Below, piece after piece: positions 15,217 to 62,863 of a stretch of DNA of 64,000 nucleotides. The DNA comes from a virus. The first letter of the stretch is position 1, and each line of letters starts with the position of its first letter. Below the pieces are notes generated by a model. It saw only the letters and a list, made by a program, of their open reading frames with translations. It had not been told where the DNA came from and searched no databases. The stretch lies in the IMG/VR virus record IMGVR_UViG_3300021256_000005; one strand, given 5' to 3'. A program made the translations under genes and the position numbers.

Positions 15217-18200
15217 TTACCTCAGTCCTGTTTTTCGTATATCTTGATACATACGCTTTGAAGTATATTCATAGCTTTGTTCAAGTAAATCTTTTACCTT
15301 TGGATATGTTTCAGCATCAATACTACCTTCAACATTTAACAAACTATCATAGTGAATATTGATATTTGGAACAATCGTAGTAGCCTTACGTGTTGTATTT
15401 ATCAATTTCTGCATACGCTCTACAGAATCAATAAAATCTGGAACGCTATTCTGCGTGAACGATTTCGGAAGTACCATTTCACCATATTGCGCAGTAATAA
15501 TACCATCGTCACCATTCATTAAATCAGATAACGGAATCAGCCGATCAATAACACCGCCTTGCGAATACCCTTTGACACCACGATTATGCAATGCGCCCTT
15601 AAATTCTTTTGAGTAGATTTTATTGTTCTTAACATATTTCTTGTAAGATTTTTCATCATACTTAAAGTCTTTAATAACGCCAGTTGGCAAATTTACTCTA
15701 CGTACAATAGAATTTTTTCCTTTTGTATTAAAGAATAAATTACCATGGCTATCCACTGTTCCTTGCACACCGTTCATCTGAACTACAGTACCACCAATAA
15801 TTCCTGCTTTTCTAAGAGAGTTCAAAGACAACTTCTGGAATTTCTTAGCGTCTGGCGTATATGAGTTAATAATTGCCAATACTTTTTGCCGTATTAACTT
15901 TTCGGCTTGTTTTTGTTGAACTGTCTTTGCTGTCGATTTTTTCTTAGCAGTAGTAGTTTTTGGTGTGGTTTTAGTAGTAGTAGGAGTAGTAGTTTTTGCA
16001 GGAGCAGGAGCGGGTTTTGGTGCATTATAAACATAATCACCACTTGCGTTGTCTTTCCCTTTAGATGCGTTTGTGTTAGTTTTACCAGCGGTACTATCTG
16101 GAATTGAAGTATCTGTTTTAACAGTAGGCGTATCTAATGTAGCAGAATTGTGTGTGTTCAAATCACCGCTAACATTACGTCCCGCATCAGAAGCAGTGTT
16201 GATATTTGTATGTACAGGTTTTGTCTTATTGTTAAGACCTTCTGTAGTTGTACCAGTCCGTTTAATAACATCATTGATATAATTATAGGCATCATCATAT
16301 TCCGCTTTTATCTTATCAAGCATATCCTTGACAATATCAATCTGGAACTGACTATTTGTTTTTAATTGATCTAATGTGTTATTCAGTGCTTTATTGGTAT
16401 TGTTGGCAAGATCGTCATAACCATCAGAGATCAAATTGATTTTATGACTACGAACCGTATCGTCATAATCTTCCTGTGCATCTTTTAACTGCTGTTGCAA
16501 TTGCAGTAATTTTGCCGCACCTGCTTCACTTGAAACACCTTGCAAAGCGGCTATTTCAGCTTTTAACTGGTTAATATCTTTATTTTTATCTTTGAGAGTT
16601 TTATTATAATCATAATAATCCTCTTTTGCAGATAAAGCAGATTTTCTCAAGTTGATATTATCTTGCAACACCTGATTCTCATTTTGAATCTGTGTCTGAT
16701 AAATATTGATAATAGACTTTTTGAGATTTTCATTCGACTCAACGGCTTGCTGAATACTTTGTGTATATTCAGACATACGCTCCGTCAATGTCTGTTCAGA
16801 TATTTCACCAGATTTGTACAGCTTCTGAATAGATGCAATGCCATTTTTCCAACTCTGAATTGCGTCAATATTTTTATTGATCTGTTCGCCAATCAATAAT
16901 AATCCCGCATATCCGCTACGATTTAATTCGCCCGCATCCGAAACAAACGTATCACTATCAAGTAGGTTAAACAAATGAGAAGCATCACGAATATCATTTT
17001 GAATCTTCGTAATCGCACGTGTAAACTTATTGACAGCCGTATTGACTATATTGTCAACCTGTTGGTTAATATCTTCACCAACTGATAAAATCTGTGAATC
17101 AACGTCACTAATCTGTTTTGCTAAATCTTGATATTTTTGACTGTTTGGGTCATAATCATCAAGCTGTTTTACCATTTCAGCACGCTGATCTCGCAACGCT
17201 TTTAAGTAAGATTGATTGTTCTGAATCGTCAGTTGAGCGTTTTTAATAGCATCATTATCCATCGTATCAAACGATGCATGTTTTGATGTATTATAAGTCG
17301 CAACTGCTTTCAGTCCATCGGCAATACGCCCGAATTTATCAACCACCCACTGTTTTAATGTGAGTCTGATCTCTTTCATCTGGTTAATCAATTCTTGTGA
17401 CGTATTCTTTGAGTCAATTACCTGCTGTTTGATTTCATTATATGTAGCTTTAATGCTCAGATAGTATTCACGTTGTGCTACATATTCATTTTTAGAATCA
17501 GTAACTTTCTTCTTGTCTTGTGCTGTTTTTGCCTGTTGTTTGCTTAACGCCTTTTTATCAGCTTTTACCTTTTTGGAATTTTTACCATATTTCTTTTGGT
17601 CTTTTGCTAATTTAGCTTGCAGTTTCTTTTGCTTCTCAACATCTTTAGCGTACTGCTTCGTTGCTTTTGTGTTAATAGTATTCGTATCACGAACCGCTTT
17701 ACGAGCATTAACCATTTCTTTTGCATAAGCATCTTGCTCTTTTTCGTATTGAGAAGTAGCTTTATTTTGTAAACTATGTTGTTTCGCTAAATTGCTATAA
17801 TAACTTCCAGAAATATTTTTACCCTGATTTTCGAGAAGCTGATTAGTAGATTCGTAAATTCCTTTTTCAGTCGTGTAAACATTAGCAGAAGTCTCATAAT
17901 ATGTTTTAATATTATCAAGACGTTGCTGTTCAATATCCGCAATCTTTTGTTGCCATGCAATCTGTTGATCTACAGCTGACTGTGCTTTATCATACCAAGA
18001 CTGATATTCATTGATTAACTCTTTGGTGACTGGATTTTTAATCTTCTGAATTGCCTTATAGTTTCCATCACGTACAAGTTTTTTGTATTTCGATGAAAGA
18101 CTAGCAGTCACAGAATATTGTTTGCCATTCTCTTTGAATTTTACAGTACGTTTTTTTACAGAAGCATCGGCTTGCTTCATATACCGTTTAGCTGATGTGG

Positions 18201-43105: not shown

Positions 43106-43683
43106 CCTATTTCTCCTTTTGACATATTAAAACAACTATTGAGTGATATTTCTATCTGCCAATATATATCTTCATACATATTCAGACACGTAGCATATAA
43201 CAGCCGAGCAGTCGGGAGCGACCCAACTGCTTTGTTATACCTATAAAACTACGGATAGACTGCTTACTATCACCTTTTACACACCTTTCGGCACAAATAT
43301 CGTTTTGTTTTAGAATGTACTTGTATAAAAAGCCTTGTGCTACTCAGACCAAACTCCAACGTTATACACGCATTTCTGCGCTTCACGGCTCTACAGATTA
43401 TTGATATTCCGCAGGTTTGATACAGTCATCGGCTAAACCCTAACTACGGTTATTGTACACAGTACCGTCTATTGCTCTGTCCGTCTCGTTTGTTCCTTTG
43501 TATGCGACACATATTGACACATATTCTTGATGTTGAGATTCTGTCTCTCCTTGCACAATATCACTATTATGCAACAGCAATAAACACAAGGTATACCTCA
43601 TGCGCTTACTGATCTTCCGAACATTCTCAGCACCGTTGGTTTCACGGCTCTGCACTGAGTTACTCAATAGCTGTTTTAATGTT
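43106..43683 (-). other. About 580-nt ORF-poor, helix-rich non-coding block upstream of the packaging genes (candidate ncRNA, leader or pac region)
   Basis: The block lies between a strong terminator at 43684-43719 and the 42068..43105 gene. An 11-nt direct repeat ttcacggctct occurs at 43382-43392 and 43641-43651, and multiple hairpins are present. Confidence 0.4.
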
Positions 43684-43719
43684 TCAAAAAAATAGTGGGT
43701 ATTTTTCGTACCCACTATT
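43684..43719 (-). terminator. Rho-independent terminator
   Basis: An 11-bp stem pairs aatagtgggta with tacccactatt and is followed on the minus strand by T7. It overlaps the stop of the 43715..44872 gene. Confidence 0.8.
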
Positions 43720-45054: not shown

Positions 45055-45448
45055 TTTTTACATCCATTTCTGCAACAAAACGCTGTTTTGGTGAATACTC
45101 ATTAAACTTGCACGGTATTAACACACCACCTGAAGTAACCTTCCTAAGTTCTTCAAATGATTCATAAGTACAGAATACTATATCATTTTCGAGAAACAAA
45201 TATTCTCCATTCTTTGCTCTTGCGGGTTCAATCCATAATTCATCGTTGCAAATTGTCACATAATATCCACCTCCATAATCATAATAGTCCACTTTTAATA
45301 ATTTAATATCAAGTTTTCTATTAAAATTACGGATTAAATAAATAACACAATCAACAATATCTTTATCTGGACACACGAAACTTACATTATAATCACTACT
45401 CAGTTCAATAATGTTGTCGTATAAATTCTCATGATCTTTAAAAATCAT
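45047..45448 (-). CDS. Hypothetical protein (133 aa)
   Basis: The ORF overlaps the cysteine desulfurase stop by 4 nt. Confidence 0.55.
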   Translation of the reverse strand: MIFKDHENLYDNIIELSSDYNVSFVCPDKDIVDCVIYLIRNFNRKLDIKLLKVDYYDYGGGYYVTICNDELWIEPARAKNGEYLFLENDIVFCTYESFEELRKVTSGGVLIPCKFNEYSPKQRFVAEMDVKND

Positions 45449-46560
45449 AACCTTTTCTCCGTTAAATCACGAAGAAATCCTGTGATTTGAATTAACTTAT
45501 CAATCACATAATCAATTTCTTCTTTTGTATTAGTATAATAAAAACTAAATCTTACACAGGTATAAATTTCTGGCTCTTTCATACCTATAGCTTCTAACAC
45601 GTAAGATTTCTCAAGTACATTAGAATTACAAGCAGAACCAGTCGATGCGCAAATTCCAATATTATCTAGCATAGAAACGATTGTATTTCCATCACAACCA
45701 TCAAATTGTACGTTTACAATGTGCGGAGACACGTTCTCATTTAACACTACATGGGCGTAAGGTATTCTGCTGACACAATCAACAAAATAATCATGCAAGT
45801 CACGCATATAATGTCTAGGTTGACATACAATATCTTTTAATGCTACAGATAATCCAACGATTGCCGCTGTATTCTCTGTACCACCAACTAACCCTTTTTC
45901 TTGATGACCATGAATAATCGTGCGAAGCGGAATAGAAGAGTACAATACAGCCGCACCACGAATACCGCCTATTTTATGCGCACCAAACGTGAATATATCA
46001 ACATGTAAGTGTCGAATGTTTACAATTTCATATCCAATTGCTTGCGTAGCATCACACATAAGTACATGATTATACCGATGCGCTATATCCGCAAGTTTAC
46101 AAATTGGCTGAATACACCCAGTTTCATTATTAACATATTGCACAATCACCAAAGAATTAGCAGGAGCGTGCTGACAAAATTCCTGATATGAAGACATATT
46201 TATCAATCCATTACTATCGACTGGTAAAATGTAAGAATTATAAGACTGTACACATTCGATAATATCAACGTGTTCTACTGCCGAACATAAAATATGCACA
46301 GAAGGATGAGATTTCATATAGCCTTGAATTGCTATATTATTTGCAGTAGTAACTGAGTTAGTAAAATAGACGTTTTCTACTTCACCGCGTAGAATATCAG
46401 CAATATCAGCACGTGCCTTTTCAATCGCTTCACGTGATTGTTTTCCTAACGAATGAGTTGAATTTGGGTTTCCGTATATTGTTGTCAGATAAGGCGTAAT
46501 TGCGTCTAACACGTGTTTTGAAGGCCGTGTTGTAGCCGCCTGATCGAAATTCACTCTCAT
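45445..46560 (-). CDS. Cysteine desulfurase (class V aminotransferase, NifS/IscS-like)
   Basis: A PLP-lysine context (FGAHKIGGIRGAAVLY) and a catalytic Cys loop (ASTGSACNS) are present. The N terminus has GNPNSTHSLG. Confidence 0.85.
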   Translation of the reverse strand: MRVNFDQAATTRPSKHVLDAITPYLTTIYGNPNSTHSLGKQSREAIEKARADIADILRGEVENVYFTNSVTTANNIAIQGYMKSHPSVHILCSAVEHVDIIECVQSYNSYILPVDSNGLINMSSYQEFCQHAPANSLVIVQYVNNETGCIQPICKLADIAHRYNHVLMCDATQAIGYEIVNIRHLHVDIFTFGAHKIGGIRGAAVLYSSIPLRTIIHGHQEKGLVGGTENTAAIVGLSVALKDIVCQPRHYMRDLHDYFVDCVSRIPYAHVVLNENVSPHIVNVQFDGCDGNTIVSMLDNIGICASTGSACNSNVLEKSYVLEAIGMKEPEIYTCVRFSFYYTNTKEEIDYVIDKLIQITGFLRDLTEKRL

Positions 46561-50824: not shown

Positions 50825-52564
50825 TTAAATAATCCACGCTTCACATTGAATATTGCTAATATTTAATTCGTGTTTAGCACGTGTCATTGCTACATACATA
50901 AGTCGTGCTTCGTTTTCTGGTGCGTCACGCCAACTTGGAAACCTATCTGGCTCGCAACCAATAATATACACACGGTCAAATTCCAATCCTTTACTGCCAT
51001 GAATCGTCATAAGAGAAACACCGCTATGATCGGATTTCTTTTTCTTATGATTCATCGTGCTAAATACAATAAAGTTATCAATCGAACTAAACCGCCACGC
51101 CATAGAAGTAAGGTTGAAAATTGAATCTCGTTTATCTTCGACTGATACTGAATCATATCGTTCATCAAGCCACTGATTCACCCTGCACAGTGCAACAATA
51201 CTATCAATGATTTTTCCAACCTGCACGTTCCGTTCTTCTTTGGTCTTTAACCGAGAAATTATATTATTGAGTTTCTCTACGTTATCTCTTTCAAATGCCT
51301 TGTCAAACTTGTGGTCAAGTAATGCTTCATACATAGAATAGTTTCGCATGGTGGCTTCTGCCCGCAGATCATCTACCAAACTTGACTTAAAGTAAGTAGC
51401 AGGGTATAAGCGTGATTCTAACAGTTGTTCCAATGCTTCATCATCACTTGTGCGATTAACTAATCTTAATACCGCCATAATACCTTTAATCGGCTGACGC
51501 TCAAAAAACGAATCACTACTATATAGCGTGTAAGGAATGTTCTTATCTTTTAGCAAGGCTTCAAGCGAGTCTACCATTGCGTTGTTACGGTACAGAACAG
51601 CCGTGTTGTTCAATTCTGCTTCTGACAGCTTCGACAAACGTTCACAAATACTCTCTGCTTCATCCAATGGAGTATCATAAGTGCTTATATTTATTTTAGT
51701 TTTAGAGCAGTCATTAGCTTTGGCGTAATATTTTACCTTGTCACCCACAAAAGGTTTAATAAAATCATTAGACGCCGTTACTATTGTATCGTTGGAGCGA
51801 TAGTTCGTATTCATGTAGATTACGTGATCCGCTTTATTACTGAACTGATAAAACAGCTCAGAATTAGCACCCCGAAACGAATAAATAGATTGTAAATAAT
51901 CGCCTACAATGAAGATGTTGTTATCAGGACACATCAATTCCATTAACTTGTACTGAACTACGTTGTTATCCTGCGCTTCATCGTTCAATAAGTATTTCCA
52001 AGTACGTCCAATATTGTCCGCCTGATATTCCTTTAAGGTAAGCAGTAACCATTCGTCAAAGTCGTACAGATGATGTTTATGACAGTAGTCCTGATAATCG
52101 CTGTAGTAGTAGCGCATCTGCTTCTCAGAGTATTCGCAATCCTTCTCCTTAAATTCATCGGTTGGATAAATACCCCAGTTTTTCTGATAAGAAATCCAAG
52201 CACGAATATCTTTGATGTTAATTTTTGGATTGTCTTTCGACCATCTGCGTTTCAGCTGATAATCTTTTGGCATATTGAGAAGATCCTCGTAACCGATTTC
52301 TTCCAATAAACGCTTGCAGATTGAGTGCATTGTGCCAGTGGTGACGCCGGTAATATTTTTGTCTGCCAGTTTCTTCTTTAGATCATTAGAAGAAGCAAGA
52401 GTGAAAGACAGAGCAACAATGTCATTTGGATTGATGCCTTGTTCAATCATATAGTTAATCCGTTCTACTAATACAGTAGATTTTCCGGAACCCGCTGAAG
52501 CAACCACTTGAACAGAACCGTCAATTGTGTGAATTGCTTCAAGTTGCTGTTTGTTATATTCCAT
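50825..52564 (-). CDS. UvrD/PcrA/Rep-type SF1 DNA helicase (579 aa)
   Basis: Walker A (ASAGSGKST), motif II (LLNDEAQDNN), YRSN, TIHGSKGLEFDRVYI and VAMTRAKHEL are all present. Confidence 0.9.
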   Translation of the reverse strand: MEYNKQQLEAIHTIDGSVQVVASAGSGKSTVLVERINYMIEQGINPNDIVALSFTLASSNDLKKKLADKNITGVTTGTMHSICKRLLEEIGYEDLLNMPKDYQLKRRWSKDNPKINIKDIRAWISYQKNWGIYPTDEFKEKDCEYSEKQMRYYYSDYQDYCHKHHLYDFDEWLLLTLKEYQADNIGRTWKYLLNDEAQDNNVVQYKLMELMCPDNNIFIVGDYLQSIYSFRGANSELFYQFSNKADHVIYMNTNYRSNDTIVTASNDFIKPFVGDKVKYYAKANDCSKTKINISTYDTPLDEAESICERLSKLSEAELNNTAVLYRNNAMVDSLEALLKDKNIPYTLYSSDSFFERQPIKGIMAVLRLVNRTSDDEALEQLLESRLYPATYFKSSLVDDLRAEATMRNYSMYEALLDHKFDKAFERDNVEKLNNIISRLKTKEERNVQVGKIIDSIVALCRVNQWLDERYDSVSVEDKRDSIFNLTSMAWRFSSIDNFIVFSTMNHKKKKSDHSGVSLMTIHGSKGLEFDRVYIIGCEPDRFPSWRDAPENEARLMYVAMTRAKHELNISNIQCEAWII

Positions 52565-52679
52565 ACAGTCTCCTTTTATAAATTTATGTTTGGTTTAAGA
52601 ACAGTATAATCCGGAATGGGGTTAAAGTCAAGAGAAAATAAAAATAAATTAAGTATTGACAAAATTAAAAAGTTGTGTT

Positions 52680-53580
<901 letters not shown>

Positions 53581-53599
53581 TTAAACAGTGTGGTTGCTA

Positions 53600-56365
53600 T
53601 ATATTATTATTTATTAAATATTTTATCTATTACTTTATCTATCGTTTGTATTATTCATTCACACTATTGAATTGTTATTATATACCCATACAACAACACA
53701 CAGTCATTTTGTGCGCTGTTTTATATATGCAGTTTAATAAGTTTACCCTAAATTATTAAAACGTCTGTATAAGCCTAATAGATATGTTATTTGAGGTGTG
53801 CCTTTTTTGGCGGGTTCTATTTTGTTGCGTGCTAGTTCCTGAGCTGTTTAGTTTATTATTTAATCGCTGTTATTTGCGCCGCCAAATTATATATACCAAA
53901 CGTCCTGTATTTTTAGCGTGTTTGTATTTGTTTGGTTGCCTATTTAGTTTAGTGTTCTGTAAGATGAGACAGTAAACTATTTGGATGTTATATTTAGTTA
54001 TATATTATATTATATATTTATATATTATTGACTGTCCAATTATTTTTCTGCGCCTTGTATCTTTGTCGGCTTTGTTTTATATTATTACTACAGTATTTTA
54101 TAGAACCGCTTGTCTGAAACATGCCTATATCTACACCTATTGATTGTACGCATGTTTTTATGACACCACCCTATAACTTTTACGTCTGAGAATAAAAACG
54201 TCTATATGAGCGTTTTAGAGCATTGTATAATACATTGATGATTGTCTATGTGTTTTGTTTAGTTAAATAAATTTAATTAAATTTCTTTAAGTATTTATTG
54301 GTGCGCCACTAGAAATATAGGCAGTATTTGACTGCTTTGTTTTGCGATGGTAAACTGTATTAAATAATTATTTGCGTGTTTTATTACCGCCTGCGAAATA
54401 GAATAATGTATATTTATTCATTGTTTATACATTTTGACTTGTTTGGTTGTTAATTTTTGCGGCTGTAATTTTTGGTTGTAGCCGTTAATGTTTGCGATGG
54501 TCTGTTTAATGTGTAAATATACCCCGCCTGTTTATTAAGTATGAGATCGCTGTTGGAGTACTTTTTTAATGTGTTTTGTATGTTATTTAGCTGAAAGATA
54601 GTTAAGCCATTAAGCAGTCAATTAGTTTAGATGATTGTTTTATGTTTGATTGAACAGAGCAATAGTGGTTGTTTCGTATTATTATATAGCACTTAAATGA
54701 TTGCTATTGTTTTGCTGATGGTTTATTCTGCGTTATTAGACAGCTAATTAGTTGAGCAGATATATGCTAATTTGTCCGCGCTGTAATTAGTTTATTTATT
54801 GGAGCAGTAAGTGATTTGCTAGTTCTATATTGCAGTTGTTTAGTCAGTGATGTTTGATGTTAAATTAGTTAGGTTCCTAACTAACTAGGTGCTAAGCCAT
54901 TTTTGTGGCGACTGAGGGTGTTATTTTATATTAATTATATATAGTTACTAATTAGTTACTAGTATTTAGCGGTTGATAATATAGTGCAGGACAATTGCCT
55001 AATTTATATGGTTACTTATTGGTTACTAATTATGTTGTTGTTTTATGCAGTGAGTGGATTCTATTAGGCGATTGAGAAGTTGATTCTGGCAGTTAATTAT
55101 TATTGAATTAAGCCGCTGAATTACTTTATTTGATTGTTGTTTTGGAAGGTGTTATTTTGTGTTGATTCGAAATTATTAGGACGTGATGTAACTAATTGTA
55201 GTTACTAATTGGTTATTAGTTACTTATTAGGTATTAAGTATGTTGTTAGTTATTTATTAGTTACGTTGCGATTTATTTAGTTGCTTCTTAATTTATTTAT
55301 GTTTTGTAATATTACTTATTCTGCGACTGATTAAGTATTGGGAAATTCATTAATCTACTGATTTTGTTATGGTTTCTAAGATATCTTCTGACGTAAAATT
55401 GGTTTTGATTAATAGTTAAATATATTTAATTATTTAGTTGAGTAGTTTTACGATTGCTGTATTGATCTGATTGTAGTTGGTAAGAAGTAATATTATTGGC
55501 TGTTAGAACTATATGGTATTAGCAGAGTATATGATTGTTGTAGTTTAGTGGTTAATTTGTTGTGTTGTTTAATTATTAAACAGTGATTTATTTAGTAGCG
55601 AGCAACAATAAGTAATAAGTTTTTAGTTAGAGTGTTAATTAGTTGTAGTGCTGATTGAACACTGATGGTTTAGTAGTGATTTATTAGAGTGATGATTGAT
55701 TTATTTATGTTTTGGTAAATTTATTTGGTTTTTGTAAATAATTTTAGGTAGATATATTTAATTATTATTTATAATGACTGAGTTGGCAAGTTATGAATGT
55801 TACTTGAAGTATTCAATTCATTTTAATAAGCCTGAGATTTTCTTGTGTCGATTTAACTTATTGAGAGTAGTTTTATAGGACGCAATTCTGATGGAACAGT
55901 TTAACAATAAGGCTACTTGATCGTTTAATTAATTAGTTAGTTATTAGGTTTTTAGTTTTTTAGAGATTGATTTAGTGGATAGTTATTTATTAATGCGGGA
56001 TTTGGTGAGTAGAACTTTTATTTAGTGAATGTGGCAGTTTGATAAGTAGGTGATGGTATAGGTTGTTAGTTAGTAATGTTGATTGGTGGTAGTGTTTATA
56101 GATTAGTGGTTATTTAGTGAATTAGTTAGTGATTGTTGCTGATGTTGATTGGTTGATAGTGTATTAGTTATGATGTTTGTTTGATTGATAGGTGTGATGG
56201 CTGTTTGTGGGTGAGTGAGTTATTTGGTAATTTTATTTGATTTTTTTGTAATTAGTTTTTGTTAGTTTCTTTAATAGTGAGTTATTTATTTGGTGAGTTT
56301 GTTGGATTTTTGGAATGTTAGTGAGTTTTTAGTGAGTTGGGAAGTGAGAAGGGTGAGATTTTGAC
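53600..56365 (+). other. About 2.7-kb ORF-free tract, G+T-rich on the plus strand, with C depletion increasing rightward
   Basis: By my count there are 7 C in 55921-56364 (444 nt). Stop codons are dense in all six frames. Confidence 0.85.
54943..55265 (+). repeat. Cluster of at least 8 GTTACTAAT / GTTACTTAT / GTAACTAAT iteron-like motifs
   Basis: Copies occur at 54944-54953, 54955-54964, 55011-55020 and 55022-55031. Further copies are at 55188-55197, 55201-55210 and 55219-55228, with degenerate copies out to 55265. Confidence 0.7.
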
Positions 56366-56617
56366 GGGGTGTGTGAGTTTACCTCCATATAGCTATTTTA
56401 GCTTTACACTTTTGTCAAAATGTATAAATAACCCCCTTTTGACGTCGGATAATAAAAATTACCCGACATGGCACTTTTTTGACATTTATGTCAAAAACTT
56501 AATAGTTAAATTTTTTTAACTAATTTTTTAATTATATATTATATATTATGCATAATATATTATATATCATATATTATATAAAATTATATTTGACACAATA
56601 TAAATTTCCAGAGCAAC

Positions 56618-56718
56618 AAAATACTTAAAAATCTTTAACCATTCCCATCCCATCAAAAATACTTAAAATAATTTAACTATTATTTTTGCTCTAAAAATAC
56701 TTAAAAATTTTTAACTAT
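56618..56718 (-). repeat. Three direct repeats (about 38-bp period) of AAAATACTTAAAA-N-TTTAAC(C/T)AT, the reverse complement of the TAGTTAAA-N-TTTAAGTATT boxes
   Basis: Copies lie at 56618-56642, 56655-56680 and 56693-56718. They sit 100-200 bp upstream of the consensus promoter at 56815. Confidence 0.75.
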
Positions 56719-56814
56719 CTCACCAGAACAAAAAATATATTTCATCAAATATAATTTGATACAACGTTATGCTGCACGTCACCAAACAAAAAATAAATTT
56801 TTTCCAAAAACCTA

Positions 56815-56843
56815 TTGACACAACGCGATACTAGTGCTATACT
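56815..56843 (+). promoter_or_regulatory. Near-consensus sigma-A/sigma-70 promoter with an extended -10 and an A/T-rich UP-like tract
   Basis: TTGACA (56815-56820), a 17-nt spacer ending in TGC, then TATACT (56838-56843). Upstream is aaaaaataaattttttccaaaaa. Confidence 0.8.
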
Positions 56844-56849
56844 ATAGTC

Positions 56850-57430
56850 AAGATAAAGATATAACTTATTTATCTTATCGTTCGGGCACTCTGCCCGCCC
56901 ACCGCTATCACAGCGGGCGTACCTTGACAAGTTACCTGTTGGTAACTCATAAGATAGGAGAACACCGTGACGGGTGAACTCTGCCTATCGTTAGTTTGAT
57001 AATTCTAACGCCTAAAAATTATCAGCCTATCTATAGGCGTAGTTTGCATACCCATGATAGGTTTACTATGAAATCGGCAACTGAAACCGTAGTTATGATA
57101 GAGTCGTTTAGACTCAAGTAGTCGGGTACAAGCCGAGTAGTAAATTGGGATTCATGGCAGACAAACTACAGCTATAGACAGGTGACTTACCCTTTGTATA
57201 TGTGAGGGTGTCGGGCTTTTCGGGTGTCCCATCAATACATCCAGGACGAAAATCATATACCGAACAAAATTGTCAACCGACGTGCCAGGGGTTGAATGTT
57301 TGCGGACTCAGTGCGCTTAAATAGCAGATAAATTTACACCGCAACATTGGCCGCCTGGTATGTCGTTACCTTGTAAGTTGCTTTAATTGCATGAGTTTAT
57401 CGTGCAATTAACGCAACTTATAAAGCGCAA
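56850..57430 (+). ncRNA. About 580-nt helix-rich untranslated RNA (long leader or stand-alone large ncRNA candidate)
   Basis: No ORF of 60 aa or more in this orientation. GC content is clearly higher than the surroundings. Many local hairpins are present: cgggca/tgcccg, agttacc-tgtt-ggtaact at 56930-56947, cgttag/ctaacg, and a 17-bp hairpin at 57374-57420. Confidence 0.5.
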
Positions 57431-57447
57431 TAAAAAAGGAGAAAACT

Positions 57448-58023
57448 ATGTTAAAATTTAATCAGATTTCAAACGGCTTTATTGACAAGACAGCAAAGGA
57501 AAACAAGGCGGGCATTACCCGCATAATTAACTACGGCGTATCCCTCGTTGATCACGCCGAGAAACTTCTGTCTTTGCAGGAAGAAAAGAAGGAAGCAGAA
57601 AACAATCTGAATTCTGCTTCTGAAAAGTTAGACGGCACAATCTCCATTGACGAACGTGCCGCAACTCTGTTATCGTATCGGCTGAAAGTTAACGCAGTCA
57701 GTGAGAAGATTAAAGCAGAAAACAAAAGTTTTCGCTCGAAATCAAAGGTATTCACCGATGCCTTCAAGACGTCTGAATTATATCAGGCGTACAAAGAGTT
57801 TGACGGAACTGGAAACAGTTACCTTGATGCCATGTCAACGTTTCTTGATTTAGTCGGTATTGTACCGACTAAAAAAACTGTCAAAAAACTTTGCCGTCTT
57901 GCTGGTGGCTCAGTAACTACTGGCAATAAAGAAATAATAAATTGCCAATTCACAAAACGCCTGTCTAAAAAGGCGTTTGAAACTTTAATCATTAGATTGC
58001 TGTGTGAAGAGTTCGCACAATAA
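57448..58023 (+). CDS. Hypothetical early protein (191 aa)
   Basis: Strong RBS (AAAGGAG). Helical protein with no motif recognised. Confidence 0.65.
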   Translation: MLKFNQISNGFIDKTAKENKAGITRIINYGVSLVDHAEKLLSLQEEKKEAENNLNSASEKLDGTISIDERAATLLSYRLKVNAVSEKIKAENKSFRSKSKVFTDAFKTSELYQAYKEFDGTGNSYLDAMSTFLDLVGIVPTKKTVKKLCRLAGGSVTTGNKEIINCQFTKRLSKKAFETLIIRLLCEEFAQ

Positions 58024-58039
58024 TTAGAAGGAGGAAATT

Positions 58040-58225
58040 ATGAGTTGGTTTGATGCAACAAAAAATTATCACGGGTATACAAAAGAAGAGTTCTATTCGG
58101 TATTCACCGATGAAGAACTCAATAGGAAATATGCCGAACTGGTTGAACATTATGATTCAATCAGGCAGGCTGACGCAGGGATACTATATGATATTCTCTG
58201 TGAACTATCAATAAAAATAAAATAG
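58040..58225 (+). CDS. Small hypothetical protein (61 aa)
   Basis: RBS GAAGGAGG; a terminator follows. Confidence 0.6.
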   Translation: MSWFDATKNYHGYTKEEFYSVFTDEELNRKYAELVEHYDSIRQADAGILYDILCELSIKIK

Positions 58226-58248
58226 GGCGCAAGCCCTATTTCTTTTTT
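58222..58248 (+). terminator. Rho-independent terminator
   Basis: An atagggc-gcaa-gccctat hairpin is followed by ttcttttttatt. Confidence 0.8.
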
Positions 58249-58317
58249 ATTATTATATATACATGTGTCACGTTTAATGGGTTCCCATAAAAACGTGGCA
58301 GAACAGAAAGGGACACG

Positions 58318-58593
58318 ATGAAAAAGAAAATAATCATTTTAGCTGTAGCATTCGGCATGGCTTTAATCATTGGTGGTCACTCTGACTATGAAACCACTAG
58401 AGCAGAAAAAGATGTCTTTTCTACTTATTCCACCGTTGAAAATATCAACGGTCAAACATGCGTAAATGTCAAAGGTGATTACTTCGCTTTTGATGATGAT
58501 TCAATCAAAGAAAACAACTACGTGAGTGTTACAGTTGATACTCACGGTTCAGACAATAAGCATGACTGGACACTTGTCCGAGTGTGCAAGTAA
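58318..58593 (+). CDS. Small secreted or membrane-anchored protein (91 aa)
   Basis: Signal-peptide-like N terminus (MKKKIIILAVAFGMALIIGG). Confidence 0.6.
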   Translation: MKKKIIILAVAFGMALIIGGHSDYETTRAEKDVFSTYSTVENINGQTCVNVKGDYFAFDDDSIKENNYVSVTVDTHGSDNKHDWTLVRVCK

Positions 58594-58628
58594 CCAATAA
58601 GATATAGATAAATATAAAGGAGCAAACT

Positions 58629-58970
58629 ATGGAAATAATTAACTTAACCCCTCATGCAATCAACATTATTACAAATAAAACCACTATCACTATTGAACCG
58701 AGTGGCACAGTCGCACGTGTCACGGCTAAAACTGTTCAGGTGGGAACGATGAACTGTGTGGATTGTGATGGTGTTAATATCCCTGTTACTACAACCGTCT
58801 TTGGGGAGATTGAAAATCTTCCCGAAGAAAAACCAGAGACAATTTATATTGTATCGGCTATAGTTGCGAAATGTTGTACAAATCGGTTCGATGTATTTGT
58901 TCCTAATGGATCTGTTAGGGATGATAATGGGCGGATCATCGGATGCAAGTCACTCAGTAGAATTTATTAA
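58629..58970 (+). CDS. Hypothetical protein (113 aa)
   Basis: RBS AAGGAG. The LTPH ... PSG ... ARV pattern recurs in unannotated phage and plasmid proteins; this is from my recollection only. Confidence 0.6.
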   Translation: MEIINLTPHAINIITNKTTITIEPSGTVARVTAKTVQVGTMNCVDCDGVNIPVTTTVFGEIENLPEEKPETIYIVSAIVAKCCTNRFDVFVPNGSVRDDNGRIIGCKSLSRIY

Positions 58971-58987
58971 GAAGGGAGAAAGAAATT

Positions 58988-59344
58988 ATGAGCATGAAAA
59001 CTACCAGAAAAGCAGTCGTTAATAACTACCCGAATATCAGGTCAGCAGACTACTGTGATTTACAGGCATTACTGCGCAATCATAACCCCCTTTGCCATAC
59101 AGAAGGCATTTACGGGTGGAACTTTGACGTATACAGCGTATACGGTCTGACAATCTGCACAGGATACCGTAACATGCCGGGAAAACGTTTAGAAGGCATT
59201 GGAACCTATGAGAAAAAAGCCGCCGCAATATGGTCAGATTATGATAATTATAAAGGTGTTGGCGGATTCGAAAAACAGCAGTCAGAAGTAGAAGAACTCT
59301 TAAAAGAGTTTTGCAAGTTGAATGGAGGGAACAATTATGAATAA
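58988..59344 (+). CDS. Hypothetical protein (118 aa)
   Basis: RBS AAGGGAGAAAG. Contains YCDLQALL ... GIYGWNFDVY. Confidence 0.6.
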   Translation: MSMKTTRKAVVNNYPNIRSADYCDLQALLRNHNPLCHTEGIYGWNFDVYSVYGLTICTGYRNMPGKRLEGIGTYEKKAAAIWSDYDNYKGVGGFEKQQSEVEELLKEFCKLNGGNNYE

Positions 59345-59630
59345 ATATAAATTTACAAGTAAGGGACGCACATTTACACGTGTAAGTAAGACAGCCGCAA
59401 AAAAGGCATTTATAAATGGTTTTACTATTGCGTTATGTCCTTCTAATTTACGCCCGGGTGCGCCATGGCACCCGGAAACAATTACAAACAGAGAAATAAT
59501 TGGCGCAGAAAATCCGGCTACGGGTTTTGACGTATTATTAAGTTCGTTCGAATACTTTAATTGCACGAACACAGAAACAGGAAGATATGCGGAGTTCTTT
59601 ATCGAAAGCGAGAATAACGAAGGAGAGTAA
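59337..59630 (+). CDS. Hypothetical protein (97 aa)
   Basis: The start was moved to MNKYKF, which is preceded by GGAGGG. It overlaps the upstream stop. Confidence 0.55.
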   Translation: MNKYKFTSKGRTFTRVSKTAAKKAFINGFTIALCPSNLRPGAPWHPETITNREIIGAENPATGFDVLLSSFEYFNCTNTETGRYAEFFIESENNEGE

Positions 59631-59632
59631 CT

Positions 59633-60181
59633 ATGACAAAATCTAGCATCACCAAATTCATCAACTTTTTTAAGAAGGAAAATAATTTAATTCTGGAACG
59701 TCATAATGAAACCATTCTTATTTCTGAGGGTCATGCAATTTATGAAATAGATTCATATATTTATGACACATATTTCAGTATTAAAAGTCCTAGATTTCAA
59801 TTTCCAGAACTGGAAAATCATGTGTGTTACATGGCAAACAGGAAGAATGAAATTCCTAGTCCTACAGGGAGCAATAAGTTGAAAGATATATATGAAAAAG
59901 CTAAACACTCAGCCACAAAATCAGTGGAATTAACGAAGTGGGTAATTAAAGATGATGCAGATTTGATGCGACTATATAAAGGCGATGAATTTGTTGTTTC
60001 GTGCAATGAAAAGTTCGTTGAACTGGCGTCATATCTTAGTGTGGACGTTCACATGGCATTAGGCAGTGATTACAAATCACCAGTAGTATTTAATACATGC
60101 ATGGTTTTACCAATGCTGATTAAAGATTCTGAAGTGTGGAATCAGCTGGCAGAAATCATGAAGGTTAAAACTACACACTGA
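59633..60181 (+). CDS. Hypothetical protein (182 aa)
   Basis: RBS GGAGAG, closely following the previous gene. Confidence 0.6.
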   Translation: MTKSSITKFINFFKKENNLILERHNETILISEGHAIYEIDSYIYDTYFSIKSPRFQFPELENHVCYMANRKNEIPSPTGSNKLKDIYEKAKHSATKSVELTKWVIKDDADLMRLYKGDEFVVSCNEKFVELASYLSVDVHMALGSDYKSPVVFNTCMVLPMLIKDSEVWNQLAEIMKVKTTH

Positions 60182-60197
60182 AAACAATTCGGGTCTG

Positions 60198-60284
60198 GAA
60201 AGAATTTCAAATTAGGTACTGATTTTTGAAAGCAGTGAAAACTGAATGCCGAAAAGAATTTGAAAATAGGTACTAGTTTCAAAG
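60198..60284 (+). promoter_or_regulatory. Tandem pair of about 34-nt hairpin repeats with a conserved TAGGTACT loop; the second abuts the RBS
   Basis: gaaagaatttcaaattaggtactgatttttgaaag lies at 60198-60232 and gaaaagaatttgaaaataggtactagtttcaaagg at 60251-60284. The tttcaaa and tttgaaa arms are swapped between the two copies. Confidence 0.55.
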
Positions 60285-60296
60285 GAGGAAACTATA

Positions 60297-62012
60297 ATGA
60301 GCTTAAAAAATGACGTAATCGAAGTATTAGATAATGAGAAATATATCTATTACAATGATGCAGTGTCAAGAATTATTAACGCTTATGAACCAAATAAACA
60401 TGAGGTAGTTGACATTTTACGCCGTCATCCTGACTGGAACGAGGATAATATGTCAATCTGTATCCCCGCAACATCGTATACACGAAAGTTCAATAGTAAT
60501 GCAATTTCCACGTTTGTAGATTACCTGATAGGCAGTATTTATTTCTCTGAGGAATTTCAGAATAATCTGGTAACATACTGTGCCGTGATGAATTATCAGT
60601 TACTCTCCAAATCTTTAGGAATAATATATTGTAGTGAAGTCATGCGTAAATGGTGGTTTGAAGAAAATGAACCATTGGTTAATGAGGATGGTGCCCTTCT
60701 ATACACACGGAATAAAGTTAGTACAGGAAAATATAATACTATTTTTCATGTATGCCCGAAAATAACGAAGGTGTTATCTTTCATTAGTTCGCTTAATACA
60801 GTTTTTTTCAATGCTGATATGGACGACGAATTAAATGAACTTAACGCCGATTTCCCGGCGTTCCATCTGCGAAACAACATGAAAACGTCAAAGGCAATCG
60901 GCAAAATTTGTAGAGAAATGGGTTGGGATAAATTTCCCAAATATAATGAAAAGTATGCGGCACTGTGTGACGAGATTAACCCATTAACAGTGCATACGCC
61001 TACATATATCAGTGTTCACCCTTGTGATTATTTATATATGTCAGATGGACATTCATGGACTAGCTGTCATGATATTCGAAACGCTGATGATCCGGGATGC
61101 TACAGTTCTGGCACTATCAGTTATATGTTAGATCATTATAGTTTCATCGTATACACACTGCCAGAAGTAGTAACCGAAAAACCGTGGAATCAGCCGAAAC
61201 TGCAAAGGGAAGTGTTTGCTCTGAAAGACGGTGTTATATTACAGAGCAGATTATATCCGCAGAGCTGTGATAACGGTTCAGGGGATGCTTATAGGGAAAT
61301 CCGCAACGTTGTACAGAAGGTAATTGCGGATTGTCTTGGGCAGCCTAATCTGTGGCAGACAAAACATTACCCGAATGTAGAACAGTACATCGTCCATGGT
61401 GACGGTGCTACCTGCTATCCAGATTGGAAAGACGGAAATCCTGGATCTACATATTGTTCCCTGACGTTCTTAAAGGGAATTGATCTCACCCATTTCTCAA
61501 TGGAAATCGGTGCAACACCTGTATGTCCAAACTGCGGAATGGAACATTGTCGTGAAGACAGTATTATCTGCGAAGATTGTGGAAACATTATCACCTGTGC
61601 AGATTGTGGCTGTGAGATGGACAGAGACTGCGCTTACATGATTGATGATGAATATTATTGTGAAGGTTGTGTCTTTTGGTGTGAATACCACGAGGATTAC
61701 GAACTAATTTCTAATGGTGTAACAGAAGTTGACGGATACGGTCAGGTTTGTGATCGAGCGTTAGAATATGGAGATTTTTACCAATGTGAATATTGCGGGG
61801 AATGGAAGTACGTAGAGGATATAATCCGCACAGAAGATGGTTGTTATTACTGTTGTGAAGAATGTGCAATTAGAGATGGTTATAGGGAAACCACCGATGG
61901 ATGGTATCTTGAACGTAAAACAGTAAAATGTCCACATTGCGGACGTTACAATTTAGAAGAAGACGATCAGTGCTATTGGTGCGGTAAATTTGTTGCGGGG
62001 GTGGCATCATGA
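60297..62012 (+). CDS. Hypothetical 571-aa protein with a Cys-rich multi-zinc-ribbon C terminus
   Basis: At least 7 CxxC pairs occur in the last roughly 170 aa (CPNCG, CEDCG, CADCGC, CEGC, CEYCG, CCEEC, CPHCG, CYWCG). A conserved-looking core (HPCDYLYMSDGHSWTSCH ... GCYSSGT) is present. Confidence 0.7.
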   Translation: MSLKNDVIEVLDNEKYIYYNDAVSRIINAYEPNKHEVVDILRRHPDWNEDNMSICIPATSYTRKFNSNAISTFVDYLIGSIYFSEEFQNNLVTYCAVMNYQLLSKSLGIIYCSEVMRKWWFEENEPLVNEDGALLYTRNKVSTGKYNTIFHVCPKITKVLSFISSLNTVFFNADMDDELNELNADFPAFHLRNNMKTSKAIGKICREMGWDKFPKYNEKYAALCDEINPLTVHTPTYISVHPCDYLYMSDGHSWTSCHDIRNADDPGCYSSGTISYMLDHYSFIVYTLPEVVTEKPWNQPKLQREVFALKDGVILQSRLYPQSCDNGSGDAYREIRNVVQKVIADCLGQPNLWQTKHYPNVEQYIVHGDGATCYPDWKDGNPGSTYCSLTFLKGIDLTHFSMEIGATPVCPNCGMEHCREDSIICEDCGNIITCADCGCEMDRDCAYMIDDEYYCEGCVFWCEYHEDYELISNGVTEVDGYGQVCDRALEYGDFYQCEYCGEWKYVEDIIRTEDGCYYCCEECAIRDGYRETTDGWYLERKTVKCPHCGRYNLEEDDQCYWCGKFVAGVAS

Positions 62013-62863
62013 ATTTTATACAGATATTGAAAAAAAGTCAGGCAGACCTGAAATCAGAACTGGAAAGTAATTTAAGATCCTATGGATACAAAGTCACTAA
62101 TGGAAACGGTTATCTGTATAAAGACGGTACATTTCCTGTATTACTGGTGGCACATATGGATACTGTCCACAAAGAGAAACCTTTGCAAATCATCAAACAC
62201 GGAAACGTATGGTCATCCCCGCAGGGCATTGGTGGAGATGATAGATGTGGCATATATATGATTCTGAAAATTATAGAAAAATATGATTGCGCCGTGTTGT
62301 TTACGGAAGATGAAGAAATCGGCTGTATTGGCGCAAGCAAATTTGTAACATCAGACCTATGTAAATCATTAAAAGGAAAGTTCAATTACATCATCGAACT
62401 GGACAGACACGGGAAAAATGATGCGGTGTTCTATGAGTGTGCCAATGATGATTTTGAAACATTTATAACAGAAAGGTACTGGGAAACAAAGCAGGGCAGT
62501 TATAGTGATATCTGCGAGATTGCTCCTGCACTTGGCGTGGCGGCTGTTAATTTAAGCTGTGGATATCACAGCGAACATCAAACAACGGAAACTGTGAATG
62601 TAGCGGAAATGAATCGCAACATAAAAGAAGTCTGTAATTTGTTATCCCGCACGAAAGACACTGTATATGAATATGTCAGCTTCTGTAATAGCTATTGGTG
62701 GGATGGTCAAACAGAATACGAAATTATATATAATAACTATTATGAGGTGGAGTATATTCTTGCAGAAAGTAAAGCAGAAGCAATTGGTATTTTTTGTATG
62801 AACCATCCACAGGTATCGTATAGTGAAATCGACAGTGTAAAGGATGATATGTTGTTTTGGTAA
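62009..62863 (+). CDS. M20/M28/M42-like metallopeptidase-fold protein (284 aa)
   Basis: The ordered metal-ligand-like motifs are VAHMDTVH, GGDDRCG, TEDEEIG, ELDRHG and GYHSEH. Confidence 0.6.
   Translation: MNFIQILKKSQADLKSELESNLRSYGYKVTNGNGYLYKDGTFPVLLVAHMDTVHKEKPLQIIKHGNVWSSPQGIGGDDRCGIYMILKIIEKYDCAVLFTEDEEIGCIGASKFVTSDLCKSLKGKFNYIIELDRHGKNDAVFYECANDDFETFITERYWETKQGSYSDICEIAPALGVAAVNLSCGYHSEHQTTETVNVAEMNRNIKEVCNLLSRTKDTVYEYVSFCNSYWWDGQTEYEIIYNNYYEVEYILAESKAEAIGIFCMNHPQVSYSEIDSVKDDMLFW

Follow-up and report, generated by a model that had tools for sequence, protein, structure and literature searches.

Cytosine depletion beside a conserved palindromic core in an SPbeta-like phage: a possible footprint of a chromosome end

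The DNA of virus record IMGVR_UViG_3300021256_000005, analysed here as a single window of 64,000 nucleotides (nt), is that of a distant SPbeta-like siphovirus, and at positions 53600-56365 it carries a non-coding, G+T-rich tract whose plus strand loses cytosine progressively rightward until the base has almost disappeared. The tract lies in a 4.9-kb gene-free gap (52565-57447) between a minus-strand block of helicase, YonO and late genes and a divergent set of plus-strand early genes. This C-poor tract is real, inherited DNA of locally extreme composition, and it is followed by a symmetric, highly conserved core and then by a short flank with the opposite skew (Table 1). Our favoured, and tentative, explanation, to which we give somewhat less than even weight, is that the right ~1 kb of the tract, the core and the mirror flank represent the inside of a genome end at which 3' strands are repeatedly single-stranded.

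Across the tract, the plus strand is composed of A.262, C.087, G.202 and T.449. The original prediction had described only 7 C in 55921-56364 (444 nt, 1.6%), no C at all in 56041-56100 and 56281-56340, a rightward loss of C, an excess of T over A and an abrupt end to the depletion, and a recount agrees with this description throughout. The 7 C are the lowest count of any 444-nt interval in the 64 kb, for which the median is 87 C and the 1st percentile 26 C, and the longest C-free runs in the tract measure 115, 103 and 95 nt. GC skew, which is near 0 at 53.6 kb, reaches +0.89 at 56.0-56.3 kb, and the right edge of the depletion is only ~40 nt wide, with 0 C in 56270-56364 and 20 C in 56400-56499. 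The maximal 400-nt GC skew is 0.90 in the tract and 0.85 in a related contig, L010, compared with at most 0.68 at every other locus fetched. The bias had also been considered unusual along the whole tract, which holds for the right part only. A neutral reference is provided by 4-fold degenerate sites of the late genes, pooled on the sense strand (n=6138; A.307, C.101, G.175, T.416), and the make-up of the whole tract is almost equal to it. Because positions 53600-55400 (C 11.2%) match this neutral composition, nothing in these left two-thirds departs from what unconstrained DNA of the phage would show; the polarity of their asymmetry is opposite to that of the neighbouring late genes. The exceptional part is the right ~1 kb (55400-56364, C 3.8%), and within it 55921-56282 has 1.9% C, with a binomial P of 8e-10 against the 10.1% expectation.

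The tract is not an assembly artefact, since an independent ENA contig matches the window over 6.1 kb except at one position (53169, within the AT-rich block that precedes the tract), and since the relative L010 is equally C-depleted. Distant relatives, whose helicase is 43-47% identical, have ordinary small genes upstream of the helicase. A closer lineage (helicase 91% identical) was reached from the other side of the gap via a 191-aa early protein, and its contig L010 aligns to 55152-58036 at ~79% identity. It shares the C depletion (1-9 C per 100 nt), the sharp boundary, an oriented GTGAG array and the structure-free zone described below, and thus the tract is inherited; the alignment with a relative that the original prediction proposed finds C depletion kept in the syntenic region and not ordinary composition. 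The bulk of the tract is 74-87% identical between the two lineages (p = 0.13-0.26) with 25 indels of 1-24 nt, and 55400-56282 in particular evolves at an approximately neutral rate with frequent indels. The core, in contrast, is 95-97% identical over 56365-56620 (p ~0.04), and the conserved block, ~56283-56640, straddles the sharp right edge of the tract. The leader that follows is ~87% identical and the gene for the 191-aa protein 78%, while p at 4-fold sites is 0.20-0.21 in the helicase and YonO genes and 0.51 in the 191-aa gene. Judged against this benchmark, the bulk of the tract drifts almost neutrally yet keeps its composition, and the core is strongly constrained. C is the least conserved base in the tract, with 56% kept (28 shared C versus 60 found in one lineage only).

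Further lineages proved scarce. A third one is represented by one 922-nt contig (SRR31242626) that ends short of the tract; scans of IMG/VR for the tract's pattern gave nothing or chance matches, a JGI pattern scan gave no match, a helicase scan of IMG/VR for more lineages gave none either, and YonO scans of reference genomes and metagenomes returned only relatives at 22% identity. A stretch poor in G, found upstream of a distant YonO homologue in a Lachnospiraceae metagenome-assembled genome, was rejected as ordinary coding sequence on the other strand.

A prominent feature of the region is its mirror geometry. On the plus strand, G+T is 0.76 and GC skew +0.89 immediately left of the core, the core itself is symmetric (G+T 0.51-0.53), and the right flank has a G+T of 0.36 with 4% G, a pattern that is identical in L010. 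Moreover, the predicted minimum free energy of single-stranded DNA (ssDNA) is 0.0 kcal/mol per 150 nt for both strands of 55951-56325, which is beyond the window's 99th percentile and +2.6 to +3.3 standard deviations for its GC content, whereas no ssDNA of the window is more prone to structure, relative to GC content, than the adjoining core (z -3.6 to -4.2). If single-strandedness causes the skew, then the exposed strand is the plus strand left of the core and the minus strand right of it, with exposure maximal at the core. Three processes at the core fit this pattern: 5'->3' resection of a double-strand end, convergence or stalling of forks, and convergence of transcription. Strand displacement, a leftward fork or a leftward transcript starting from the core are ruled out by polarity, as each of them exposes the minus strand.

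The tract is also not a gene in any state of preservation. Three-nucleotide periodicity in the gap is 0.76, compared with 12-16 in neighbouring genes, stops number 78-104 per frame, the longest open stretch is 71 codons, and a tblastn comparison of the gap with open reading frames (ORFs) of the relatives gave chance matches only; a coding region or decayed gene is excluded by the absent periodicity, the dense stops and the lack of residual homology. An ORF-shaped stretch does run over the conserved core (56337-56519 on the plus strand of the window, 1111-1356 in L010), and annotation pipelines would probably call it a hypothetical protein. It was rejected as a gene on the grounds that nearly every nucleotide difference alters an amino acid, as expected of conserved DNA, and a homology search with this pseudo-ORF found no match. 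An Rfam cmscan (E <= 1, 52000-58000) returned only two chance matches, both within the helicase gene, and ARAGORN found no tRNA in the gap. Tandem Repeats Finder reported only short arrays of 2-5 copies in 53600-56365 and no array covering the tract, and the repeat families are scattered. The known Chi sequences AGCGG, GAAGCGG, GCGCGTG, GCTGGTGG and GNTGGTGG, none of them necessarily that of the host, are not enriched. Oriented GTGAG and TAGTTA families, in contrast, are enriched, with TAGTTA (12 vs 2.8) and GTGAGT (8 vs 1.3) above Markov expectation in both lineages.

Why should such a structure mark a chromosome end? In the SPbeta group, packaging has a precisely defined start between yonR and yonP, in the intergenic region that immediately precedes the yonO operon, and proceeds by the headful mechanism; a conserved ~250-bp block follows this start, and the terminal redundancy of the DNA is needed for re-circularisation (bioRxiv 10.1101/2021.11.22.469490; PMC8270828). 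The layout of phi3T at the divergence between yonP-yonO and the early genes is the same as here, and the deposited Goe genomes are oriented as phi3T; the reported leftward decay of coverage therefore points to yonP/yonO, which corresponds to leftward through the tract. In phiCD211, too, a perfect terminal repeat of 378 bp lies where late and early genes diverge. The large terminase subunit of the present phage (TerL, 40283-42055) shares 45% identity with YonF of SPbeta and phi3T over 92% of its length (E 4e-143), compared with 37% identity to its counterpart in phiCD211 and 26% in c-st. Because of this synteny with the ends of the SPbeta group and phiCD211, and because TerL is closest to YonF, the conserved core is probably the best candidate for a pac site or terminal repeat, that is, for a physical genome end. 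At the nucleotide level, a 'distant' blastn search with 52500-57500 as query matched no SPbeta-group phage among 50,697 phage records, and by-eye comparison with the region upstream of yonP in phi3T found no similarity.

We infer from these relationships a chain of events that would leave the observed pattern. The tract would be a non-coding spacer on the inner side of a fixed double-strand end of the chromosome, with the core (~56283-56640) acting as the packaging start site or a short terminal repeat. Such ends would occur both on injected virion DNA and on the concatemer after terminase cleavage. Resection in the 5'->3' direction would then leave the 3'-ended strand single, namely the plus strand left of the core, which would be 3'-ending on the tract side regardless of packaging direction, and the minus strand right of it, with exposure commonest at the end and fading over 1-3 kb. 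For cytosine, deamination in ssDNA outpaces that in the duplex by about two orders of magnitude. Deamination of C to U (read as T) and of A to hypoxanthine (read as G) would thus turn an unconstrained exposed strand G+T-rich, and minutes of exposure per infection cycle could add a mutation load similar to that of replication errors, enough for a roughly two- to four-fold asymmetry. The expected outcome would be a gradient peaking at the core, a sharp edge and a mirror image beyond. Neither of the complementary tails could form G:C hairpins, a property that may be under selection because it helps the tails to anneal or to load recombinase when the genome re-circularises or replicates by recombination. 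Such selection for unstructured tails that suit a recombinase could act beside mutation, given the precedent of oriented Chi sites in LLS-type lambdoid phages (discussed below) and the preference of RecA for TGG-type repeats (PMC3763553).

Polarised deamination, one of the four mechanisms listed in the original prediction, is indeed the best fit to the neutral-rate divergence, the fast turnover of C and the excess of C>T and A>G, but several points weigh against extending it to a genome end. The implied plus-strand rate ratios, 2.2 for C>T/G>A and 4.1 for A>G/T>C (both deamination-type changes in excess), assume compositional stationarity and partly restate the composition, and the substitutions come from two lineages only and are hence unpolarised. 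The neutral benchmark is ambiguous, with a 4-fold p of 0.2 for genes left of the gap and of 0.51 for the one to its right. The match of the left two-thirds to late-gene neutral sites means that a genome-wide asymmetry due to transcription or replication exists and could contribute, slippage-driven growth of G/T-rich motifs contributed to some degree, and the composition of the right flank may be functional (promoter and operator repeats) and not mutational. The position of the DNA end is placed by synteny only, with relatives of 37-45% protein identity, and every contig fetched ends elsewhere than at the core. Furthermore, phiCD211 and c-st, whose ends are mapped, have no comparable skew beside their terminal repeats, and phi3T has no such tract at the equivalent region; phiCD211 and c-st have almost no unconstrained DNA beside their ends, and the equivalent region of phi3T is only ~200 nt.

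A variant of the genome-end explanation is that the tract serves as a telomere-like end buffer, a kilobase-scale, non-coding terminal arm, expendable to exonucleases, with C-less and G-less strands that yield structure-free tails, G/T-rich on the 3' strand and well suited to annealing and to loading of a recombinase as the genome re-circularises or replicates by recombination, its composition being maintained jointly by ssDNA deamination and selection. We regard this as possible but doubtful.

Transcription is another potential source of the asymmetry. A rightward non-coding unit ending at the core, perhaps with several weak promoters, would make the plus strand the non-template strand and allow it to gain C>T and A>G changes. 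The late-gene sense-strand 4-fold sites carry the same type of asymmetry at about half the strength of the tract, weak plus-strand promoter-like sites occur at 53966 and 54328, and a cumulative multi-promoter model also yields a rightward gradient with a sharp end. However, promoter-like sites are not enriched (30 vs 38.6 expected), there is no convincing rightward terminator at 56365-56400, the rightward-transcribed early genes have A>T and not T>A at their 4-fold sites, and the mirror skew right of the core would require a leftward transcript that has no support. It is thus an unlikely explanation, and the 'non-template strand' form of deamination in the original prediction would need such rightward transcription, for which there is no evidence.

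Replication could also expose one strand, if rightward forks from an origin at ~53.0-53.9 kb, where the gap is AT-rich and bears palindromes, with the plus strand as lagging template, stall at a protein-bound core and leave the last Okazaki-sized stretch single-stranded. The gap is not short of origin-like features, namely a cumulative GC-skew minimum at ~53.7 kb, AT-rich blocks, an iteron-like GTTAC cluster, eight 19-bp palindromes and an adjacent helicase gene; the gradient length of 1-2.5 kb is Okazaki-sized, and the skew polarity on both sides of the gap is consistent with divergent forks. However, gene orientation changes in step with position, which deprives the skew switch of any specificity as evidence, SPbeta-like phages have no known initiator gene, DnaA boxes or origin, and the model does not predict a reversed skew limited to ~200-450 nt right of the core. 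We consider this quite unlikely.

A similarly low probability is given to polar expansion or slippage of short G/T-rich motifs (cryptically simple DNA), perhaps forming a low-specificity protein lattice, in place of point-mutation bias. The excess of TAGTTA and GTGAGT in both lineages, a spectral peak at ~3.9 nt in the tract, multi-nucleotide indels and the nearby (TA)n expansion all speak for such growth. Yet the arrays detected are short, sub-regions use different motifs and not a single decaying array, Cs are gained and lost by point substitution, and most of the tract is not conserved, which argues against a specific lattice. A low-complexity protein-binding lattice, as put forward in the original prediction, hence survives locally, at the GTGAG array (56283-56380) and the GTTAC iteron-like cluster (54930-55270), but not for the bulk of the tract.

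Leftward RNA is a further candidate, and a highly unlikely one: an A/C-rich, nearly G-less and unstructured transcript could act, for example, as a long Rho-loading (rut-like) insulator against early-region read-through into the helicase, YonO and late genes. Such an RNA would have 20-28% C, 2-9% G and zero predicted structure, its G depletion would be strongest at its would-be 5' end, and a minus-strand terminator-like hairpin (53453-53424) stands at its far end. Against this, inspection of the core revealed no credible leftward promoter, the RNA would be rich in A and not in C, its sequence drifts neutrally, 2.7 kb far exceeds the need of a rut site, and a Shine-Dalgarno-like GGAGG at 56379-56388 is not kept in L010. 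The related proposal of an RNA selected for immunity to sequence-specific RNases is not supported, with no convincing promoter or terminator flanking the tract and no conservation of its sequence. A role as a long leader of the helicase/YonO operon was rejected as unnecessary, given that the helicase has its own promoter 45 nt upstream and given the reported start site of YonO (PMC5467207).

The weakest proposal is priming of replication by R-loops on a G-rich non-template strand. Origins of this type are known from other phages (T4, ColE1-type), G far exceeds C on the plus strand, and three G3-G4 runs occur at 56339-56369, but by nearest-neighbour calculation a hybrid with plus-sense RNA would be less stable than the DNA duplex by 10 to 14 kcal/mol per 100 nt (window mean +6.3), a deficit that arises because the RNA is 45-48% U, and only 8 runs of three or more G occur in 2.8 kb. 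The idea is disfavoured by hybrid thermodynamics and G-run counts, and is most improbable.

Table 1. Features of the gene-free gap and its borders (window coordinates)
Feature	Position (strand)	Description
AT-rich zone	52565-53600	Extreme A+T (GC 13-20%); (TA)n-type blocks split by GC-rich hairpin islands
Predicted helicase-operon promoter	52631-52603 (-)	sigmaA-type, TTGACT-17-TATACT
GC-rich multi-hairpin islands	~52780-52870, 52960-53030, 53380-53455	
Terminator-like hairpin	53424-53453 (-)	13-bp stem, oriented for leftward transcripts; between tract and helicase promoter
Moderately skewed zone	53600-55400 (+)	Non-coding; C 9-13%, T 44-45%; no codon periodicity, stops dense in six frames
Iteron-like cluster	54930-55270 (+)	GTTACTAATTAGTTAC and variants (GTTAC); its Cs are among the few kept in the relative
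Extreme C-poor zone	55400-56282 (+)	C falls from 5.8% to 1.9%; G up to 27%, T 44-49%
Last 82 nt of tract	56283-56364 (+)	0 C, G 34%; highly conserved between lineages
(A/G)GTGAG array	56293, 56321, 56332, 56344, 56353, 56373 (+)	Spacing partly 9-12 nt
Core	56365-56600	Symmetric composition, palindrome-dense, 95-97% conserved
Core palindrome	56476-56495	TTTTGACA-TTTA-TGTCAAAA
Other core palindromes		AGCTA-TTT-TAGCT; GTCGG...CCGAC; ATATTATGCATAATAT; one copy of the 19-bp palindrome
Mirror-skew right flank	56601-56810	Plus strand A.45, C.19, G.04; minus strand thus G+T-rich
38-nt repeat (2.7 copies)	in right flank	Each copy with a 19-bp palindrome; upstream of early promoter
Predicted early promoter	56815-56843 (+)	Strong sigmaA-type, TTGACA-17-TGcTATACT; kept in the relative
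Leader of first rightward gene	56846-57447 (+)	600 nt, base-balanced, constrained, structured; bounds the tract, outside the skewed part
19-bp palindrome copies	53153, 53194, 54261/54274, 55414, 56504, 56622, 56661, 56699	

All eight copies of an imperfect palindrome of ~19 bp, A[GC]TTAAA-N4-5-TTTAA[GC]T, lie inside the gap, and they look like an operator set for a dimeric regulator; the single difference between the window and the ENA contig, G/T at 53169, falls in one of them. The (A/G)GTGAG units of the array have no counterpart on the opposite strand. Three independent assemblies end within the (TA)n-type blocks of 52680-53560. A search for promoter-like elements shared between the gap and other intergenic regions gave chance-level matches only. 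The leader diverges from L010 by p ~0.125, compared with 0.51 at the 4-fold sites of the adjacent gene, and a fold predicted for the two sequences together has 154 pairs, 7 of them with compensatory double changes, as well as a long predicted hairpin (57372-57425) directly before the ribosome-binding site. It has no Rfam match and is a candidate novel structured leader or non-coding RNA (ncRNA).

On the left of the gap, the minus-strand late block contains tail genes (including one for a 3679-aa tape-measure protein), portal and terminase genes and homologues of YonG and YonJ, and the same strand encodes an HU-like protein, a YonO-type RNA polymerase (PF05183) and a UvrD-type helicase ending at 52564. 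The polymerase gene is 1.75 kb from the gap, and the YonO-like neighbourhood assumed in the original prediction is thus correct. An Aminotran_5-family gene (45445-46560, minus strand) lies within the late/structural block, which also has a 600-nt non-coding gap (43106-43714) between the YonG and YonJ homologues. YonO of SPbeta initiates upstream of yonK, beside an unannotated ncRNA, at a start that is downstream of its own gene (PMC5467207), and by analogy 43106-43714 may hold the YonO promoter and ncRNA of the present phage. On the right, small plus-strand genes begin at 57448, and a few kilobases into the early block, downstream of the window, genes with GmrSD_N and ArdC-N/MPTase-PolyVal domains (anti-restriction type) are found at 15649-17789 of ENA contig L004. 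The two sides differ at sense-strand 4-fold sites, where late genes (244-52564) have T.42 > A.31 with C.10 and early genes (57448-62863) have A.35 > T.29 with C.17, and they differ in divergence from the relative (0.08-0.21 on the late side vs 0.51 in the 191-aa gene). This jump in composition and divergence across the gap indicates mosaicism.

If the genome-end explanation holds, it would have several implications. Base composition alone would reveal both a chromosome end and the exposed strand, so that a footprint of end processing could be recognised in a single assembly, and termini and packaging polarity of SPbeta-like phages not yet in culture would become predictable. The region would also serve as a natural example of local, ssDNA-driven mutational asymmetry outside organelles, and would suggest that some phages keep expendable, structure-free terminal arms, with a bearing on how they survive end-directed nucleases of the host. 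Whatever the mechanism, the core, together with the eight palindromes that are restricted to the gap, identifies the main control region of a phage group not characterised before.

Among known systems, the closest comparison is the pac region of the SPbeta group, which likewise lies at the late/early divergence upstream of the YonO operon, has a conserved block of a few hundred base pairs with inverted repeats, and belongs to phages whose terminase, YonF, is the closest large terminase to TerL here (45%) and whose terminal redundancy serves re-circularisation. The region differs in Bacillus phages of this group, where ~200 nt are followed by genes with no multi-kilobase skewed tract and where the end is mapped, not inferred as here. 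The terminal repeats of phiCD211 (378 bp) and c-st (404 bp) are comparable in length to the core (symmetric over 236 nt, conserved over ~360 nt), and repeats of this type are collapsed by assemblies, but their flanks are mostly coding and have no extreme skew, and their large terminases are more distant (37% and 26%); c-st, with no skew and a TerL only 26% identical, is uninformative as a model of the end.

Oriented elements near a DNA end have a precedent in LLS-type lambdoid phages, in which Chi sites cluster near one end on the strand that is 3'-ending there (PMC12315714). Like the tract, these are G/T-rich oriented elements close to an end, where they act on an exonuclease or recombinase entering from it. 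They are, however, discrete 8-mers within genes, whereas here a whole non-coding region is skewed and the known Firmicute and E. coli Chi sequences are not enriched. The 15-bp SPBRE operators, bound in SPbeta by the master repressor MrpR (PMC10516654), resemble the 19-bp palindrome in being short repeats that occur solely in promoters and between genes, the yonP/yonT divergence among them, but differ from it in sequence and length, and the likeness concerns regulation of the gap and not its skew.

Single-stranded exposure also shapes the skew of animal mitochondrial DNA, whose heavy strand is G+T-rich, with the same signature of T>A and G>C, an excess of C>T and A>G, a gradient that follows single-stranded time and is anchored at a cis element, and one base reduced to a few percent at unconstrained sites (e.g. 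PMC2939890). The difference is that exposure there comes from strand-displacement replication, in place of the end resection proposed here, and that the present skew is local (1-3 kb) with a polarity opposite to displacement from the core. Another parallel is the telomere. The strand running 5'->3' toward the end of a linear chromosome is G/T-rich and C-poor, and telomeric DNA, like the tract, is non-coding, buffer-like, indel-prone and of low complexity, with TTAG-type motifs. The likeness is limited in that there is here no telomerase, no regular repeat unit and no evidence of end-binding proteins, and it may be convergent or coincidental. We view the skewed unit not as a new kind of element but as a variation on two known themes, ssDNA-driven strand asymmetry and the pac or terminal regions of phage chromosomes.

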